Counted from the stretch's first letter, positions 1,963 through 26,907 are shown. The stretch: 26,907 bases of DNA from a virus (IMGVR_UViG_2778261676_000004); one strand, 5' to 3'. Made by a program: numbers and translations. The notes: generated by a model not told the origin, from the sequence alone.

Positions 1963-4401
1963 TTAAAAATCAGCCTGATTCGGGATCAGTTTTTGTATCG
2001 TGGCTGTAACGTATTTCGCCTGGTGACGGGCATCATCCAGCGCATGGTGGCGCACGCCTTCAAATAGAATAACTGTTCTGGCATCGAAGCCGATAGTTTT
2101 TCCCAGTTCAACGATTGTACGTACATCGCGATCGTTGTAGTAACGCCACGGGCAGGGGATGTTCAGGCGTTCGTACGAGGTTCGTAAAATAGTGTTGTCG
2201 AAAGTTGCACCATTGCCCCATACCTGAACGAATTCTTCATCCGAGTACTCATTGATGAATTCCCGAAATTGAATAAGAGCGTCAACCAGTTTTACCTGAT
2301 CAACTAAAATTGCAGATCTGGCTTCGCTGGACTGAGCAAGCCACCATTCGATGGTGGAACCATCAGGAACAGCACCCGTGTCCATAGCGTCAACCAGGCT
2401 GATAACGATATAAAATGTTGGCCCGATTTCCCCGGTCTGCGGATCGAAGAACACAGCACCAATAACCACGATGGGGGCATTACTTTTTTTACCCATCGTT
2501 TCAAGGTCGATCATCAGGTGGTACCACACTCTGCTGGTGGATGTGATAACGTGATGACCGTTCACCGCAATTAAGGGATCTGCCGTCTCGCCAGTTTCGC
2601 TATCGCTGGCGTGGTCCTGATAGCTGCCAGCATTCTCCTTGTGTGGATGTTCAGCGCCTTCCATTTCCTCCGGATCTTTTTCCTGAGATTCATCCAGATT
2701 TTCTTCATTAAAGGTTTCCTGATACGTTGCGTCGCCCATCACCGCACCACAATCAGGGCAGTTGCCGCCGCTGGTCTGACCGCAGGCGGTGCAGGCTTTT
2801 TCCGGCTCCTGTTGCGCATTTGGGCTGTTTTGTTCCGCTTTCTGGTCGTTCTGTTCCGTTTCTTTCTGGTTCTGATTCACTGAATCGCGGGTTTCAATCC
2901 CCTTCACCCATTTCGGATCATTCGGGTCGCTAATCCCTGCAACAAATTCACCACGTGATACAGCAAGCAACTTATTGGCGTCAGGCTGGCTGATATTGGC
3001 TGCCTGCATAATTTTGTTTACTTCGTCAGCGGTAACTTTTACCGGCTCTGGTTGTGCGATCGTGTCAGATGCACCAGTATTTTGTTGTGAACCTGAGTAT
3101 GTGCCGTTTTTGCGGGCAAAATATTCTTCTTTCGTGATTTCAGTAGCCCCTGCAGCCAGCGCCTTATTCAGACCAGAAAGTTTGTTTGCACGACCATATT
3201 TTTCGCCATCCTTATCGGTGAAAAGGAAGTAGAACGGCCCCTCACGCTCTACAGATGGTTCAGTTTCCAGCGTGCTTTCATTTTTTTGGGTATCAGATAC
3301 TTCAGTTTCCACTGCATCAGTTTGTGCTGCTGACGGCTGGAGAATATCAGCAGTGTTCTGGTCTGTTTCTTCATCCTCAAACACGCCCTTTGTCGCCAGG
3401 TATTCAGTGATGTATTTGTTCAGTGCCACGGGATCTTTGTGAATGTCGATCGGACGCTCACGGACAAGGCCAAAAATAGTCTGACGGTCGTAGCGGACGG
3501 CATCGGGTTGTTTGCGCATTGATGCGGAAATGCGCTTCCAGTCTTCGCGATCTTTGTCGATAACTTCATTTTTTGCCCAGCGATGGATGCTGCCGTCAAT
3601 GTTTCCGGCATTAATATCGCCAGGCCACAGAGCGTAGGCCAGTTCTTCATCCAGCGTTTTCCATGTCTGCTTGTATTCGCGACGAATGGCGGCAGTGGCG
3701 GGGTTGATTTTTCCTGCTGAGTTTTCAGTGTGCTGCCGGTTGACTCTGGCGCGGGCAAGATCAACAACAGACGTGTATTTCCCGGTTTCTTTGCGTTCGG
3801 CTTCGCGACGTTTTTTCCAGGTGCGTAATTCTGTCTGGATCTCAGGCCATTTTGCACCCGGCTTACATTTATGTTTAACCCACCCGATGGCGAACAGCTT
3901 TAGTTCTGAATACATGACGTTAACTTCAGGCATTTTCATCAATGCCTCAACGATATGCCCGTCGAATGTTGCCATGTCCTCCTGCAACAATTCCTGTGCA
4001 CTAATCACCATATCAACGGTGATGTTTTCACATGTACCGAACTTAACCAGGACCGCGTTCTGTACTTCAAGGGACAGCTTGTCAAAATTGACGTTCATCG
4101 GATCGGATTCTGGTTCGATCGGGACAAAAGAGGCTGACTCTTCATCCCAGCGGTTTTCCAGCATATATTCGGTATCCCAGGAGTCGATGGCAGGGCGGGG
4201 CATGCCGGGTTTATCCTCGCAAACAAGAAATTTATAAGCGCAGTCCTGAGCAGCCGGATATTGCTCCAGGAATTGCCAGGTAAATTTGGCACGGGCGCGG
4301 CGTTCGTCGCCGGCTTCAATGGCAGTGGCTACAGCGACTGCACCTTCTTCCTTTATTGCCTGTTCGTCCGGAATGGCGGCGCAAATAAAGACTTTACTCA
4401 T
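1963..4401 (-). CDS. Large prophage exonuclease with C-terminal DEDDh (DnaQ-like) 3'-5' exonuclease domain
   Basis: 812 aa; C-terminal motifs MIDLETMG, WGNGATFDN and HHALDDA match the DEDDh exonuclease pattern; central CTACGQTSGGNCPDCG is a C-x2-C...C-x2-C zinc-ribbon-like motif; acidic low-complexity linker. Confidence 0.8.
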   Translation of the reverse strand: MSKVFICAAIPDEQAIKEEGAVAVATAIEAGDERRARAKFTWQFLEQYPAAQDCAYKFLVCEDKPGMPRPAIDSWDTEYMLENRWDEESASFVPIEPESDPMNVNFDKLSLEVQNAVLVKFGTCENITVDMVISAQELLQEDMATFDGHIVEALMKMPEVNVMYSELKLFAIGWVKHKCKPGAKWPEIQTELRTWKKRREAERKETGKYTSVVDLARARVNRQHTENSAGKINPATAAIRREYKQTWKTLDEELAYALWPGDINAGNIDGSIHRWAKNEVIDKDREDWKRISASMRKQPDAVRYDRQTIFGLVRERPIDIHKDPVALNKYITEYLATKGVFEDEETDQNTADILQPSAAQTDAVETEVSDTQKNESTLETEPSVEREGPFYFLFTDKDGEKYGRANKLSGLNKALAAGATEITKEEYFARKNGTYSGSQQNTGASDTIAQPEPVKVTADEVNKIMQAANISQPDANKLLAVSRGEFVAGISDPNDPKWVKGIETRDSVNQNQKETEQNDQKAEQNSPNAQQEPEKACTACGQTSGGNCPDCGAVMGDATYQETFNEENLDESQEKDPEEMEGAEHPHKENAGSYQDHASDSETGETADPLIAVNGHHVITSTSRVWYHLMIDLETMGKKSNAPIVVIGAVFFDPQTGEIGPTFYIVISLVDAMDTGAVPDGSTIEWWLAQSSEARSAILVDQVKLVDALIQFREFINEYSDEEFVQVWGNGATFDNTILRTSYERLNIPCPWRYYNDRDVRTIVELGKTIGFDARTVILFEGVRHHALDDARHQAKYVTATIQKLIPNQADF

Positions 4402-4687: not shown

Positions 4688-4870
4688 TCAGCGTCCTTTT
4701 TGCATCAGGCGTAAACGGGCCAGCATTGAAACAATGCATATTTGATTTAATAGCTCCCGTTCGTGTTTTCTCTTATTAATGGCATCTTCAGTAAATACAG
4801 GGTTACTGATTCTGACACCAATTTCAAAACAACCTTCAGACGTATTGACGTTTGGTAATAACGTTTCCAT
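4688..4870 (-). CDS. dicB: DicB-like cell division inhibitor
   Basis: 60 aa, METLLPNVNTSEGCFEIGVRISNPVFTEDAINKRKHERELLNQICIVSMLARLRLM, near-identical to my recollection of E. coli DicB (MKTLLPNVNTSEGCFEIGV...); RBS GAGGACG upstream. Confidence 0.8.
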   Translation of the reverse strand: METLLPNVNTSEGCFEIGVRISNPVFTEDAINKRKHERELLNQICIVSMLARLRLMQKGR

Positions 4871-4887
4871 TATCGCGTCCTCAACAA

Positions 4888-5049
4888 TGAATTTTGTGAT
4901 GCGGTGCCTGGTGCCTCCAGGTGACGTTAACTAGTTAACAATTAACGCCGGATACAGAGAACCCACCCATAAGAACCAATACGGAAGTCAACTGGCCTTT
5001 TTAACTGTTCCGCGTGCGCTGAGCCGCATTCACCGCATCACAAAATTCA
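4888..5049. repeat. Perfect 19-bp inverted repeat pair (4888-4906 and 5031-5049) enclosing about 124 nt
   Basis: TGAATTTTGTGATGCGGTG at 4888-4906 and its exact reverse complement CACCGCATCACAAAATTCA at 5031-5049; interior holds the 14-bp palindrome GTTAACTAGTTAAC (4926-4939) and CCTGGTGCCTCCAGG. Confidence 0.85.
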
Positions 5050-5051
5050 CT

Positions 5052-5108
5052 TTAAAAAGGACGGACATCAGCCAGCAATGAAACTGATGCCGCCAAAAGG
5101 TAATCAAC
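5052..5108 (-). ncRNA. dicF: DicF-like small RNA (approximate boundaries)
   Basis: Minus-strand sequence ...TTTTGGCGGCATCAGTTTCATTGCTGGCTGATGTCCGTCCTTTTTAAAGTGAATTTTGTG resembles my recollection of the DicF terminator hairpin and flank; sits between ydfB-like and dicB as in the dicB operon. Ends not determined. Confidence 0.45.
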
Positions 5109-5764
5109 ATGGGTTGTTGCAGCGGGGTTGTCACTCAGGCGTATGGTCAACCTGACAACCCGGTGTCCTCAACAGGGGGAAGGAATAACCCCGCCATACG
5201 TACCGCCGCGCCATTTCGCGGAGTGCCACAACCGGAAGCGCACGGTCGAATTAAATTTAACGACACCGTACAGTGAGACGAACTTCGCCGTGCGCTTTCG
5301 CGTTATGCCCTGACTTTTCAGGGATATATCCTTTCAGTAAACTGTCAGTGCCGGATTCTTATCCGTGTCCGGCGCACGACCACATGTGGCAGCATGTTGG
5401 TCTCCATTTTTAACCCAGAACCTCAATGGAGGATAAAATGTCAGACAAGTTAATTAACCCATTTACCTATCCATCTGTTGCAGCTTTGAACTTAACAGTT
5501 GAGTTAATTCGGGCTGGCAAAATGTCATCCCCTTCAGAGGCGGCTAATTCAGTTATTACAATCCGCAATATATTAAAAGAAGAAAAACAAGCCGCTATGG
5601 AGAAGACTGATAAAGAGCAATAAAGGCTTCTCTGATTTCTTGAGCCAGTTTTTTAGCTGGATCTACCTTTTCTGTCTCCCCGTTCAAAATGAGAGATTTC
5701 AGTGTTTCTGCGGCGATTTTCTGAGTGTCTGGAGGTAAATCTTTAAATTCCATCTTTAACCCCG

Positions 5765-12519: not shown

Positions 12520-13152
12520 TTTATTTGCAATTAAGCCATGCTTTTTAGGTGGCTTATTTTTTTTGAATCTACTACTTATATTGATATTAGCAATGTAATT
12601 GCTAAAGTATTCCTAGCCCACTATTCATCTAAATATGGTTGTCGAAAGGCCCGCTTCTCGCTCAAAGCGGACTAGAAGGTTAGCTTGCGTCGGACTTGGC
12701 GTATTTAAAGAAGTGCTGGTGGTGACTGGTTGTTGTGTTCCATTTCTACAGAACAAAATCACAGAAACTATACCCAATAGTTGTATCTCATCAATGATGA
12801 GACAGCCTCATATTTATCAGGACTGGTGTACGTCCAATACAGGAGGTTGTCGTGCTGGTTCTCAAATGTGCGCTGGCTATTGCAGCTGTAATGGCAATTT
12901 ATTGTCTTGCTGTTGTTCTTATGGATCGCCTTTCTGATTGATTTTATATTGGCGAGGTAACGGGAGTTAAGTAGAATGGCTGCGGGTGCTTGAGGCTATC
13001 TGTCTCAGGCATGAACACCAAAGGCAGATAGAGAAAAGCCCCAGTTAACATTACGCGTCCTGCAAGACGCTTAACATTAATCTGAGGCTCAATCTATGAA
13101 CGGCAAATCTAGGTTAGCCTCTTACGTGCCGAAAGGCAAGGAGAAGCAGGCT

Positions 13153-13308
13153 ATGAAGCAGCAAAAGGCGATGTTAATCGCCCTGATCGTCATCTGTTTA
13201 ACCGTCATAGTGACGGCACTGGTAACGAGGAAAGACCTCTGCGAGGTACGAATCCGAACCGGCCAGACGGAGGTTGCTGTCTTCGTGGACTACGAATCTG
13301 AGAAGTAA
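13153..13308 (+). CDS. Hok/Gef-family membrane toxin (type I toxin-antitoxin)
   Basis: 51 aa MKQQKAMLIALIVICLTVIVTALVTRKDLCEVRIRTGQTEVAVFVDYESEK, very close to my recollection of Gef/HokC; RBS AAGGAGAAG; in-frame upstream extension from 13096; 9-bp stem-loop GGCGGGAGA/TCTCCCGCC at 13318-13339 and a T8 run at 13391-13398 downstream. Confidence 0.8.
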   Translation: MKQQKAMLIALIVICLTVIVTALVTRKDLCEVRIRTGQTEVAVFVDYESEK

Positions 13309-16897: not shown

Positions 16898-16927
16898 TTG
16901 ACCAGACACATTGTCCGGGGCTATATT
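16898..16927 (+). promoter_or_regulatory. Candidate late promoter (PR'-like) just downstream of Q
   Basis: TTGACC (16898-16903), 18-bp spacer, TATATT (16922-16927); followed by a structured leader and a hairpin terminator. Confidence 0.35.
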
Positions 16928-16987
16928 CCTCACGCGCCAGCAAAATCTGGCGTCGGGATTGGCGTCCCGGATGAAAAAGGCGACAAC

Positions 16988-17010
16988 AGACGCGCCAGCG
17001 TCTTTTTTAT
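16988..17010 (+). terminator. Leader terminator (tR'-like) downstream of the candidate late promoter
   Basis: AGACGC GCCA GCGTCT followed by TTTTTTAT. Confidence 0.55.
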
Positions 17011-17166
17011 TGTCGTTTGCACTGTCACATCTCAATGGTGGGCTGTGTGGGGGCGGAGCGATCCGCGCCGGTTCCTTTTTCCCGGTTACGCCAACCCTGC
17101 ACAGTTCACCACCATACTGATTGGCGTCAGCAGTGGTGATGATTCACATAGAAAAAGGATCATCCT

Positions 17167-26326: not shown

Positions 26327-26907
26327 TGGCATTCAGAATGAGTGAACAACCACGGACCATAAAAATTTATAATCTGCTGGCCGGAACTAATGAATTTATT
26401 GGTGAAGGTGACGCATATATTCCGCCTCATACCGGTCTGCCTGCAAACAGTACCGATATTGCACCGCCAGATATTCCGGCTGGCTTTGTGGCTGTTTTCA
26501 ACAGTGATGAGGCATCGTGGCATCTCGTTGAAGACCATCGGGGTAAAACCGTCTATGACGTGGCTTCCGGCGACGCGTTATTTATTTCTGAACTCGGTCC
26601 GTTACCGGAAAATTTTACCTGGTTATCGCCGGGAGGGGAATATCAGAAGTGGAACGGCACAGCCTGGGTGAAGGATACGGAAGCAGAAAAACTGTTCCGG
26701 ATCCGGGAGGCGGAAGAAACAAAAAACAACCTGATGCAGGTAGCCAGTGAGCATATTGCGCCGCTTCAGGATGCTGCAGATCTGGAAATTGCAACGGAGG
26801 AAGAAACCTCGTTGCTGGAAGCCTGGAAGAAGTATCGGGTATTGCTGAACCGTGTTGATACATCAACTGCACCTGATATTGAGTGGCCGACTTCACCTGC
26901 AGAGTAA
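26326..26907 (+). CDS. tfa: Tail fibre assembly protein Tfa
   Basis: [54 protein letters not shown] matches lambda Tfa as recalled; start overlaps the stf stop (ATAATGG); stop at 26905-26907. Confidence 0.9.

Follow-up and report, generated by a model that had tools for sequence, protein, structure and literature searches.

A long-stalked STnc100-like RNA domain between a DicF-like small RNA and dicB is a probable RNase III processing site in a lambdoid prophage

We analysed a stretch of viral DNA of 26,907 nucleotides (nt; IMGVR_UViG_2778261676_000004), referred to here in full as the window, in which a perfect inverted repeat lies between a DicF-like small RNA (sRNA) and the cell-division inhibitor gene dicB. 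The two arms of the repeat pair to form the closing stem, P1, of a ~165-nt structured RNA domain that resembles the STnc100/PasD sRNAs of prophages, and we consider it probable that RNase III cuts this stalk to separate the DicF-like RNA from the dicB message. DicB, KilR and DicF are prophage-encoded inhibitors of FtsZ that are toxic to the host and whose expression needs tight gating; the processing and translation of transcripts that extend beyond the DicF terminator are so far little characterised.

An inverted-repeat search recovered the two segments that the initial annotation had reported at 4888–4906 and 5031–5049, each 19 nt long, 100% complementary and separated by 124 nt. The pair is the top inverted repeat in the whole window and the only perfect one of at least 14 nt with arms within 400 nt, and the chance expectation for such repeats is ~4e-5 (26907 x 400 x 4^-19). 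When the transcript was folded (4860–5115, minus strand; −101.2 kcal/mol, z = −6.1 versus shuffles), the repeat formed a long stem in which an A-U and a G·U pair extend the 19 perfect base pairs (bp) to 21. P1 thus offers the roughly two turns of nearly uninterrupted double-stranded RNA expected of an RNase III site, and its arm-duplex energy of −42.2 kcal/mol is the strongest among the 151 distinct elements for which flank duplex energy was computed. The stem ends just before dicB as proposed, but with the 3' arm reaching to 4888 and the ATG beginning at 4870, there are 17 intervening nt rather than 16. A palindrome noted inside the stem, GTTAACTAGTTAAC, is present at 4926–4939; its exactness is limited to the window copy, and most homologues read GTTAACTGGTTAAC.

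Covariation among homologues places this stem on the RNA of the dicB strand. When 56 distinct elements were aligned with MAFFT by sequence alone (A2), the structure comprising the 21-bp P1, P2, P5 and P6 was paired in 85.5% of cells, compared with 32–41% when partners were slid by 1–3 columns, and its covariation of 0.282 (0.06–0.09 when slid) was reached by 0 of 500 shuffles. RNAalifold independently recovered the inner part of P1, P2 and P6. A covariance model built from A2, R1, was used to realign 63 elements (A3); this second alignment, which was fitted to the structure and hence leans towards it, had 89.9% of cells paired, a covariation of 0.370 versus 0.03–0.10, and changes on both sides in 17 of the 21 P1 pairs. 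Pairs that are C-G and G-C in the window are U·G and G·U in Escherichia coli K-12; phage Tritos, with one of each, stands in between. G·U cells outnumber A·C or C·A cells in the inner stalk by ~30 to 8, which fits an RNA on the dicB strand and is the opposite of what the other strand would predict. Stalks of unrelated sequence are still complementary: one has 22 perfect bp (L037, CAACAGACCUUGCAAUGCAGUG), and others read ...CAGGCUUUGCAAU... in Klebsiella and Raoultella copies and ...UUAAAUUUAUU... in an Enterobacter copy (L138). The stem acts as RNA on the dicB strand, and helix and domain are conserved at the RNA level; the long stem that had been proposed for the transcript is borne out both by the fold and by this strand-specific covariation.

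The 124 nt between the arms, whose nature the initial annotation had missed, are not a spacer and hold a conserved domain of STnc100-like structure. A permissive Rfam scan placed STnc100 (RF02076) at 4893–5047 on the minus strand with 33 bits (E = 2.7e-5, gathering threshold 47), spanning model positions 21–154 of 206, and the inverted repeat falls on the outer helix of that model. Although the score falls short of membership, the element has the layout of the family (P1, P2, P5, and P6 abutting P1) and its motifs GGUGAAU and CACCNGGAGGCACCNGGCACC. Both share a closing helix that starts GGUG/CACC, an AAU junction, P2, a variable arm, the P5 hairpin, a CCNGG-AGGCA-CCNGG P6 against the 3' strand of P1, and a home in lambdoid prophages of Enterobacteriaceae. 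The two differ in P2 (GCGGC.. in the window, CCCCU.. in canonical members), in score, in the length of P1 (19–22 bp in long-stalk members versus 6–9 bp in free-standing ones) and in context, the window element being embedded in an mRNA with neither promoter nor terminator of its own. Free-standing genes have their own terminator and specify an sRNA of ~160–210 nt; no terminator was found between the 3' arm and dicB, where the Shine-Dalgarno (SD) sequence and ATG lie within 18 nt.

Sequence conservation within the domain follows its helices (Table 1). GTGAAT is invariant in the 56 sequences, the P5 stem varies between lineages, and the middle pair of P6 is U-A in 33 sequences and G-C in 30; the variable arm of the window carries a 14-nt insertion relative to K-12. 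The motif CACCNGGAGGCACCNGGCAC, from the hairpin abutting the 3' arm, matches >120 viral contigs. The subfamily motif GTGAATGCGGCTNNGCGCACGCGG likewise matches >120 viral contigs, together with 21 genome contigs from Escherichia, Shigella, Klebsiella, Raoultella, Citrobacter, Enterobacter and two metagenome-assembled genomes labelled Veillonella and Collinsella. Canonical STnc100 copies score 68–161 bits against the Rfam model, compared with 33–43 bits for all members of the 'GCGGCU' subfamily, and the K-12 dicF-dicB spacer itself scores 34.4 bits. R1 gave the window element 158.5 bits and found no second copy in the window.

Table 1. Features of the dicF-dicB region of the window (positions counted from the first letter of the window).
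Feature	Coordinates	Strand	Evidence
DicF-like sRNA: variable 5' part (UGUUGAUUACCUUUU), terminator hairpin GGCGGCAUCAG...CUGAUGUCCGUCC, U-tract 5054–5058	5054..5109	-	Rfam, terminator scan, fold
P1 5' arm: exact arm 5031–5049 plus G5050 and A5051	5031..5051	-	Repeat search, folds
P1 3' arm: exact arm 4888–4906 plus U4887 and U4886	4886..4906	-	Repeat search, folds; 17/21 P1 pairs changed on both sides in homologues
Whole structured domain (P1, P2, variable arm, P5, P6), long-stalk STnc100-like member	4886..5051	-	Rfam STnc100 33 bits; R1 158.5 bits; fold −70.6 kcal/mol
P2 hairpin GCGGC-UCAGC-GC(A)CGC after the invariant junction GGUGAAU	5012..5027	-	RNAalifold consensus, pair counts
P5 hairpin with conserved loop UGUUAACU, holding the palindrome 4926–4939	4925..4947	-	7/8 pairs change on both sides; 90% of cells paired in A3
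P6 hairpin CCUGG-AGGCA-CCAGG abutting the P1 3' arm, family signature motif	4907..4921	-	Pair counts, motif scan
dicB SD region GAGGACG; predicted partner CGUCCUU at 5057–5063 (3' side of the DicF-like terminator and start of the U-tract)	4876..4882	-	Fold probabilities
dicB, 60 aa, cell-division inhibitor, 3' of the stalk	4688..4870	-	ORF (open reading frame) list; Pfam PF05358 E=1.5e-37; NCBIfam CellDivInhibDicB
Upstream helix CGAAAGCGCACGG / CCGUGCGCUUCCG	5233–5245 with 5288–5300	-	Inverted repeat I7, 13 nt, 92% complementary; folds of window and K-12

The Rfam-annotated STnc100 copies of E. coli EDL933 lie >10 kb from its dicF copies, and hence none of them is the dicF-dicB spacer. No novel non-coding RNA named after positions beside the EDL933 dicF copies was found in the RNA-seq/Ribo-seq paper on that strain, and neither dicF nor dicB is mentioned in the survey of the PasD/STnc100 family (Zhu, Shabalina & Storz 2026). 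That survey reports PasD sRNAs found by Hfq RIL-seq (sequencing of interacting RNAs after their ligation) and validated by Northern blot, with Hfq association and base-pairing targets reported for canonical STnc100/PasD members only. Canonical STnc100 has been detected by Northern blot, and free-standing members accumulate as RNAs of ~190–210 nt. Judged by sequence and layout, the spacer is a diverged, unannotated, below-threshold relative of this prophage sRNA family. The element on its own (query ~294–560) also occurs at 83–86% identity in Aeromonas phage AP1 (MT713136.1) and Actinobacillus phage vB_Apl-pPE4 (PP818812.1), whose listed hosts are not enterobacterial; this may reflect transfer or contamination.

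RNase III processing, which had been suggested for the stem, gains indirect backing from K-12, whose dicF-dicB region is ~87% identical to that of the window. Processing of the K-12 dicBF transcript involves RNase III and RNase E (Faubladier, Cam & Bouché 1990, cited by PMC5069750, PMC9438474 and PMC10448788). According to two papers that cite Faubladier et al. 1990, RNase III generates a 72-nt form of DicF out of the complete dicBF transcript, and the 53-nt form ends at the terminator. With DicF at 2781–2833 of the K-12 locus (L001), adding 19 nt to the 53 puts the 72-nt end at 2852, which is position 10 of the 19-nt 5' arm, between UGAAUUUUGU and GAUGUGGUG. By this arithmetic the stem would coincide with the reported K-12 cut. 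Transferred to the window, the cut would fall between 5040 and 5039. RNase III usually leaves a 2-nt 3' overhang, and on that assumption the partner cut would lie between 4896 and 4895.

A second DicF species offers a check on the quoted lengths. The 5' end of the 190-nt species has been ascribed to RNase III (Ragunathan et al. 2023), and the same arithmetic puts this end inside the 3' arm of a long helix upstream of K-12 dicF (~2634–2650), which supports the use of these lengths. The window has an upstream helix ~190 nt 5' of the DicF-like 3' end, extended in the fold, and by arithmetic only it is the likely counterpart of the K-12 RNase III site for the 5' end of the 190-nt precursor.

By analogy with K-12, processing by RNase III is the best-supported function of the stem. 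We envisage that the DicF-like sRNA ends at its intrinsic terminator and that the two 19-nt segments pair in RNA that reads through it. RNase III would cut the full-length operon RNA inside the stalk, ~10 nt into the 5' arm, and the staggered cut would separate the DicF-like RNA from the dicB-ydfD message, leaving the dicB mRNA with a 25-nt leader. It would also release a ~144-nt folded core with a P1 of 9 bp, near the 6–9 bp of free-standing members. More speculatively, the cut could detach the 3' strand of the terminator and the U-tract from a masked dicB SD and so modestly favour translation.

Stalks cut by RNase III are known from the lambda N-leader site, the T7 early intercistronic sites and the stems flanking 16S and 23S rRNA. 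As there, a duplex of about two turns is formed in the window by sequences flanking a functional unit in a polycistronic RNA, and cleavage of the known stalks separates units and can alter expression of the downstream gene. The window differs in that the excised unit would be a ~144-nt multi-helix domain and in that cleavage is known from the K-12 homologue only. ManS and other sRNAs processed by RNase III also appeared among the hits of our literature search.

Several points weigh against this reading. The Rfam matches to STnc100 and DicF are both below their gathering thresholds. The cleavage position was deduced from lengths quoted in secondary sources, and cleavage in the window strain would follow by homology with K-12. 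Ragunathan et al. (2023) describe the upstream RNase III site only and mention no downstream site, and in both global RNase III studies that we examined dicB is absent beyond citation of the 1990 paper. Two embedded copies 5' of TerB-like genes (L132 and L145) have a P1 of only 9 bp, so a long stalk is not obligatory for embedding. Many of the dicB-type sequences are close kin and there are only ~8 classes of stalk sequence, so that counts of elements are not counts of independent events. Finally, across 17 representatives of all long-stalk lineages the mean predicted accessibility of the SD window was 0.42 uncut and 0.44 cut, which also tells against translational control.

The length of the stalk goes with what follows it. 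Arm-duplex energies were bimodal across the 151 distinct elements. All 64 elements at or below −29.9 kcal/mol, with stalks of ~19–22 bp, some of them bulged, are followed without a terminator by an SD and an ORF 28–62 nt beyond the start of the 3' arm. The 87 elements at or above −25.8 kcal/mol, which represent the free-standing sRNA genes, have a P1 of 6–9 bp and in most cases an intrinsic terminator of their own. Long stalks are followed by ORFs that encode DicB, KilR (NCBIfam 'FtsZ inhibitor protein', E=1e-46), YdaE-family and Ash/Rha-like proteins and several small hydrophobic peptides.

Other arrangements were also observed. Tandem arrays of free-standing STnc100 genes lie next to tRNA genes, each copy apparently with its own terminator: one array (L030, 342–1253) has three copies at 342–532, 607–785 and 862–1038, and another (L028, 2795–3798) has two. 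Embedded copies of the same subfamily as the window element, with a P1 of ~9 bp and an SD and a TerB-like ORF within 40–45 nt, are found at L132, L145, L148, L150 and L188. A further subfamily has the opposite order, in which a DicF-like sRNA, UGCUGUGUGUAGUC...GGUACCAG...CUGGUACCGUCCUUUUU, comes directly after a short-stalk element with a P1 of ~9 bp (L004, 3445–3667, minus strand; also L006, L019, L052 and others).

The cassette has two copies in E. coli K-12, one ahead of dicB in Qin and one ahead of kilR in Rac. The Rac copy (L224, E. coli DH1 NC_017638.1 1392000–1420000; 8424–8660, minus strand) scores 147 bits with R1 and consists of a DicF-like sRNA with terminator, a long-stalk element and a kilR start ~12 nt past the model match; nothing is annotated at this location. 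Like the window, it places an FtsZ-inhibitor gene 30–40 nt after the stalk. It differs in its stalk, which contains a bulge of 1 nt and a wobble, and in the 5' part of its sRNA, which is of the UGCUGUGUGUAGUC... type; moreover, KilR is unrelated to DicB, and the kilR SD is not predicted to be masked. Besides dicB and the kilR of Rac, the cassette precedes other small genes in prophages of Klebsiella, Raoultella and Enterobacter. Both the membership of embedded long-stalk elements in the STnc100/PasD family and the sharing of the cassette across enterobacterial genera appear undescribed in the literature that we searched.

These findings offer a concrete, mutable target for work on the control of dicB and kilR. 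They also suggest how free-standing members of a phage sRNA family and a form within operons interconvert. A bolder version, which we put forward tentatively and rate as a good deal less probable than cutting of the stalk itself, is a three-in-one 'pre-sRNA' ahead of dicB and kilR: an STnc100/PasD domain within an mRNA would have exchanged promoter and terminator for a ~20-bp RNase III stalk, and one cut would free a folded ~144-nt RNA that has a function of its own, mature the DicF-like sRNA and uncouple or activate the toxic gene. Lambdoid early-left operons would then share a conserved processing cassette, of which K-12 has two unannotated copies.

The sRNA upstream of the stalk keeps the position and the terminator of DicF. 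It follows ydfA/B-like genes and precedes dicB, in synteny with K-12 and with E. coli EC11, and it ends in an intrinsic terminator (terminator scan match 5091–5064; hairpin fold −18.3 kcal/mol) with an intact U-tract. The Rfam DicF model (RF00039) matched 5059–5109 on the minus strand at only 28.6 bits in a permissive 900-nt search (E=5e-4; gathering threshold 48), compared with 76.7 bits for K-12 DicF; an Rfam scan at gathering threshold detected neither DicF nor STnc100 in this region. Relative to K-12 dicF, the terminator half is conserved, 10 nt of the 5' part are deleted or replaced, and the loop is different, lacking ACUCCG, through which K-12 DicF is complementary to the ribosome-binding site of ftsZ. 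In a crude test of duplexes with ftsZ (−70 to +40), the DicF-like RNA reached −29.7 kcal/mol versus a shuffle mean of −31.6, and K-12 DicF −38.5 kcal/mol versus −33.1 for shuffles. The naming of a DicF-like sRNA at this site therefore stands for position and conserved terminator but fails on the Rfam threshold, the 5' part and the ftsZ-pairing loop, and from its sequence we would regard the RNA as a positional and structural homologue that should not be filed as DicF.

Across the fetched loci, the sRNA before the spacer is modular, being canonical DicF, the 'UGCUGUGUGUAGUC...' type or the 'CAUGUUGAUUACCUUUUGG...' type of the window. The window-type variant (5052–5135, 5' part CAUGUUGAUUACCUUUUGG) was matched at >=80% coverage in 83 of 5426 complete E. 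coli genomes, and no annotated feature lies under any of the matches listed. Hundreds of E. coli prophage copies of the element and of DicF variants score below the Rfam thresholds and are currently unlabelled.

Translational control of dicB had been suggested alongside processing. Here, the stem and its extension would hold the terminator 3' strand and U-tract on the dicB SD, so that the toxic DicB is poorly translated unless the structure is opened or cut. In read-through RNA of dicB-type copies, GAGG of the SD has a predicted unpaired probability of ~0, and the start codon of the window and of K-12-type copies sits in a predicted local hairpin (GAUAAUG-GAAA-CGUUAUU, 4855–4873, minus strand). 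Predicted mean accessibility of the SD window rises on cutting from 0.14 to 0.63 in the window and from 0.14 to 0.30 in K-12. A C·A mismatch in the K-12 SD extension is mended in two ways, by a U in the window and by a G in the SD region of another copy (L159), which is anecdotal; the commonest dicB-type variant, however, retains the mismatch. In the kilR-type and several other long-stalk lineages the 5' flank does not mask the SD and the cut does not open it, the perfect 19-bp helix stops 17 nt before the AUG, at the edge of the ribosome footprint, and the whole scheme derives from thermodynamic prediction. Because the cut does not open the ribosome-binding site in all long-stalk lineages, we demoted translational control to a rival of RNase III processing. 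The prediction of a paired SD that opens after cutting holds in the window but is inconsistent across lineages; as the purpose of the stem, translational control is unlikely, and we would at most weakly propose it as a possible local add-on rather than a conserved function.

The stalk might instead be purely architectural, insulating the folding of an STnc100-like functional RNA, be it a base-pairing sRNA, a sponge or a protein-binding domain, with no RNase III cut and no link to dicB. Irrespective of dicB, P2, P5, P6 and the junction motifs show conservation and covariation, the same core exists as free-standing genes, and the Northern-detected and RIL-seq-derived relatives described above would suit such an RNA. 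Yet a largely uninterrupted duplex of 19–22 bp exceeds what insulation needs, and some embedded copies manage with 9 bp. Duplexes of 19–22 bp are of the length recognised by RNase III. Together with the cutting reported in the literature at the K-12 position, this makes insulation alone a distinctly unlikely explanation, though a less unlikely one than those that follow.

We give still less credence to control at the level of transcription, in which the cassette would be where Rho/NusG termination or put-like antitermination gates access to a division-inhibitor gene. The cassette comes after an intrinsic terminator, the same cassette lies 5' of kilR in K-12 Rac, and kilR expression depends on read-through when NusG is lowered, according to the literature; a Rho/NusG-dependent role in silencing is plausible for the kilR copy. 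Strong RNA structure generally disfavours Rho loading, and that of the cassette counts against Rho. A put-like antiterminator is unlikely because free-standing copies have predicted intrinsic terminators 30–60 nt later and accumulate as discrete RNAs, which argues against a termination-resistant polymerase. A tRNA-like or RNase P substrate reading of the P1–P6 stack was also considered, and the P6 loop is 5 nt rather than 7.

Least credible of all is a feature of the DNA, in which the arms would be the terminal inverted repeats that bound a small mobile element, a palindrome to which a protein binds, or a boundary at which phage modules recombined. The element does occur in several contexts, and at the mosaic junctions the 3' arm is directly followed by dicB, kilR or ash/rha-like genes, but the arms vary between lineages while staying complementary, the wobbles are strand-specific, the interior shows RNA-type covariation, and direct repeats were not seen on either side of the arms (AAAG before, UUGU after). 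Because the wobble pairs are strand-specific and the arms variable yet complementary, we rejected a miniature inverted-repeat transposable element or DNA palindrome.

The window represents a lambdoid prophage of E. coli that lies next to potC/potD and has an early-left operon similar to dicBF of Qin. It is 99.9% identical to a prophage of strain EC11, which is inserted next to potC/potD. On the minus strand between 4300 and 5700, ydfA/ydfB-like small genes are followed by ~300 nt of untranslated RNA, the DicF-like sequence with its hairpin and U-tract, a spacer of ~185 nt, dicB and a ydfD-like DUF1482 gene. The identity of DicB is secure from its protein-family matches, and the same gene in EC11 is annotated dicB. 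The ~87% identity of the dicF-dicB region extends to the Qin counterpart of K-12 (DH1) and to phage Tritos, where DicF is annotated. K-12 Qin shares the order of repressor, ydfA/B-like genes, sRNA with terminator, spacer (~175–185 nt), dicB and ydfD-like gene, and the long stem, core helices and SD context are the same. It differs in that the stalk of the window is fully Watson-Crick where that of K-12 has two wobbles, in the 5' part and loop of the sRNA and the longer variable arm already described, in the U of the window terminator 3' strand that completes the SD pairing, and in DicB itself (60 aa in the window, 62 aa in K-12). The window is a variant copy of the known K-12 arrangement rather than a new system: its stalk is perfect, its DicF-like sRNA is divergent and its variable arm is enlarged by the 14-nt insertion.

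Elsewhere in the window, Rfam matches above threshold lie at 12984–13158, 16921–17116 and 26669–26867, the families concerned being the sok antitoxin RNA, the c4-a1b1 / isrK / C4 antisense immunity cluster and IS009. An 812-aa ORF 3' of the ydfD-like gene is intact (1963–4401, minus strand), and its EC11 counterpart is annotated as a frameshifted pseudogene with a 3'-5' exoribonuclease domain.

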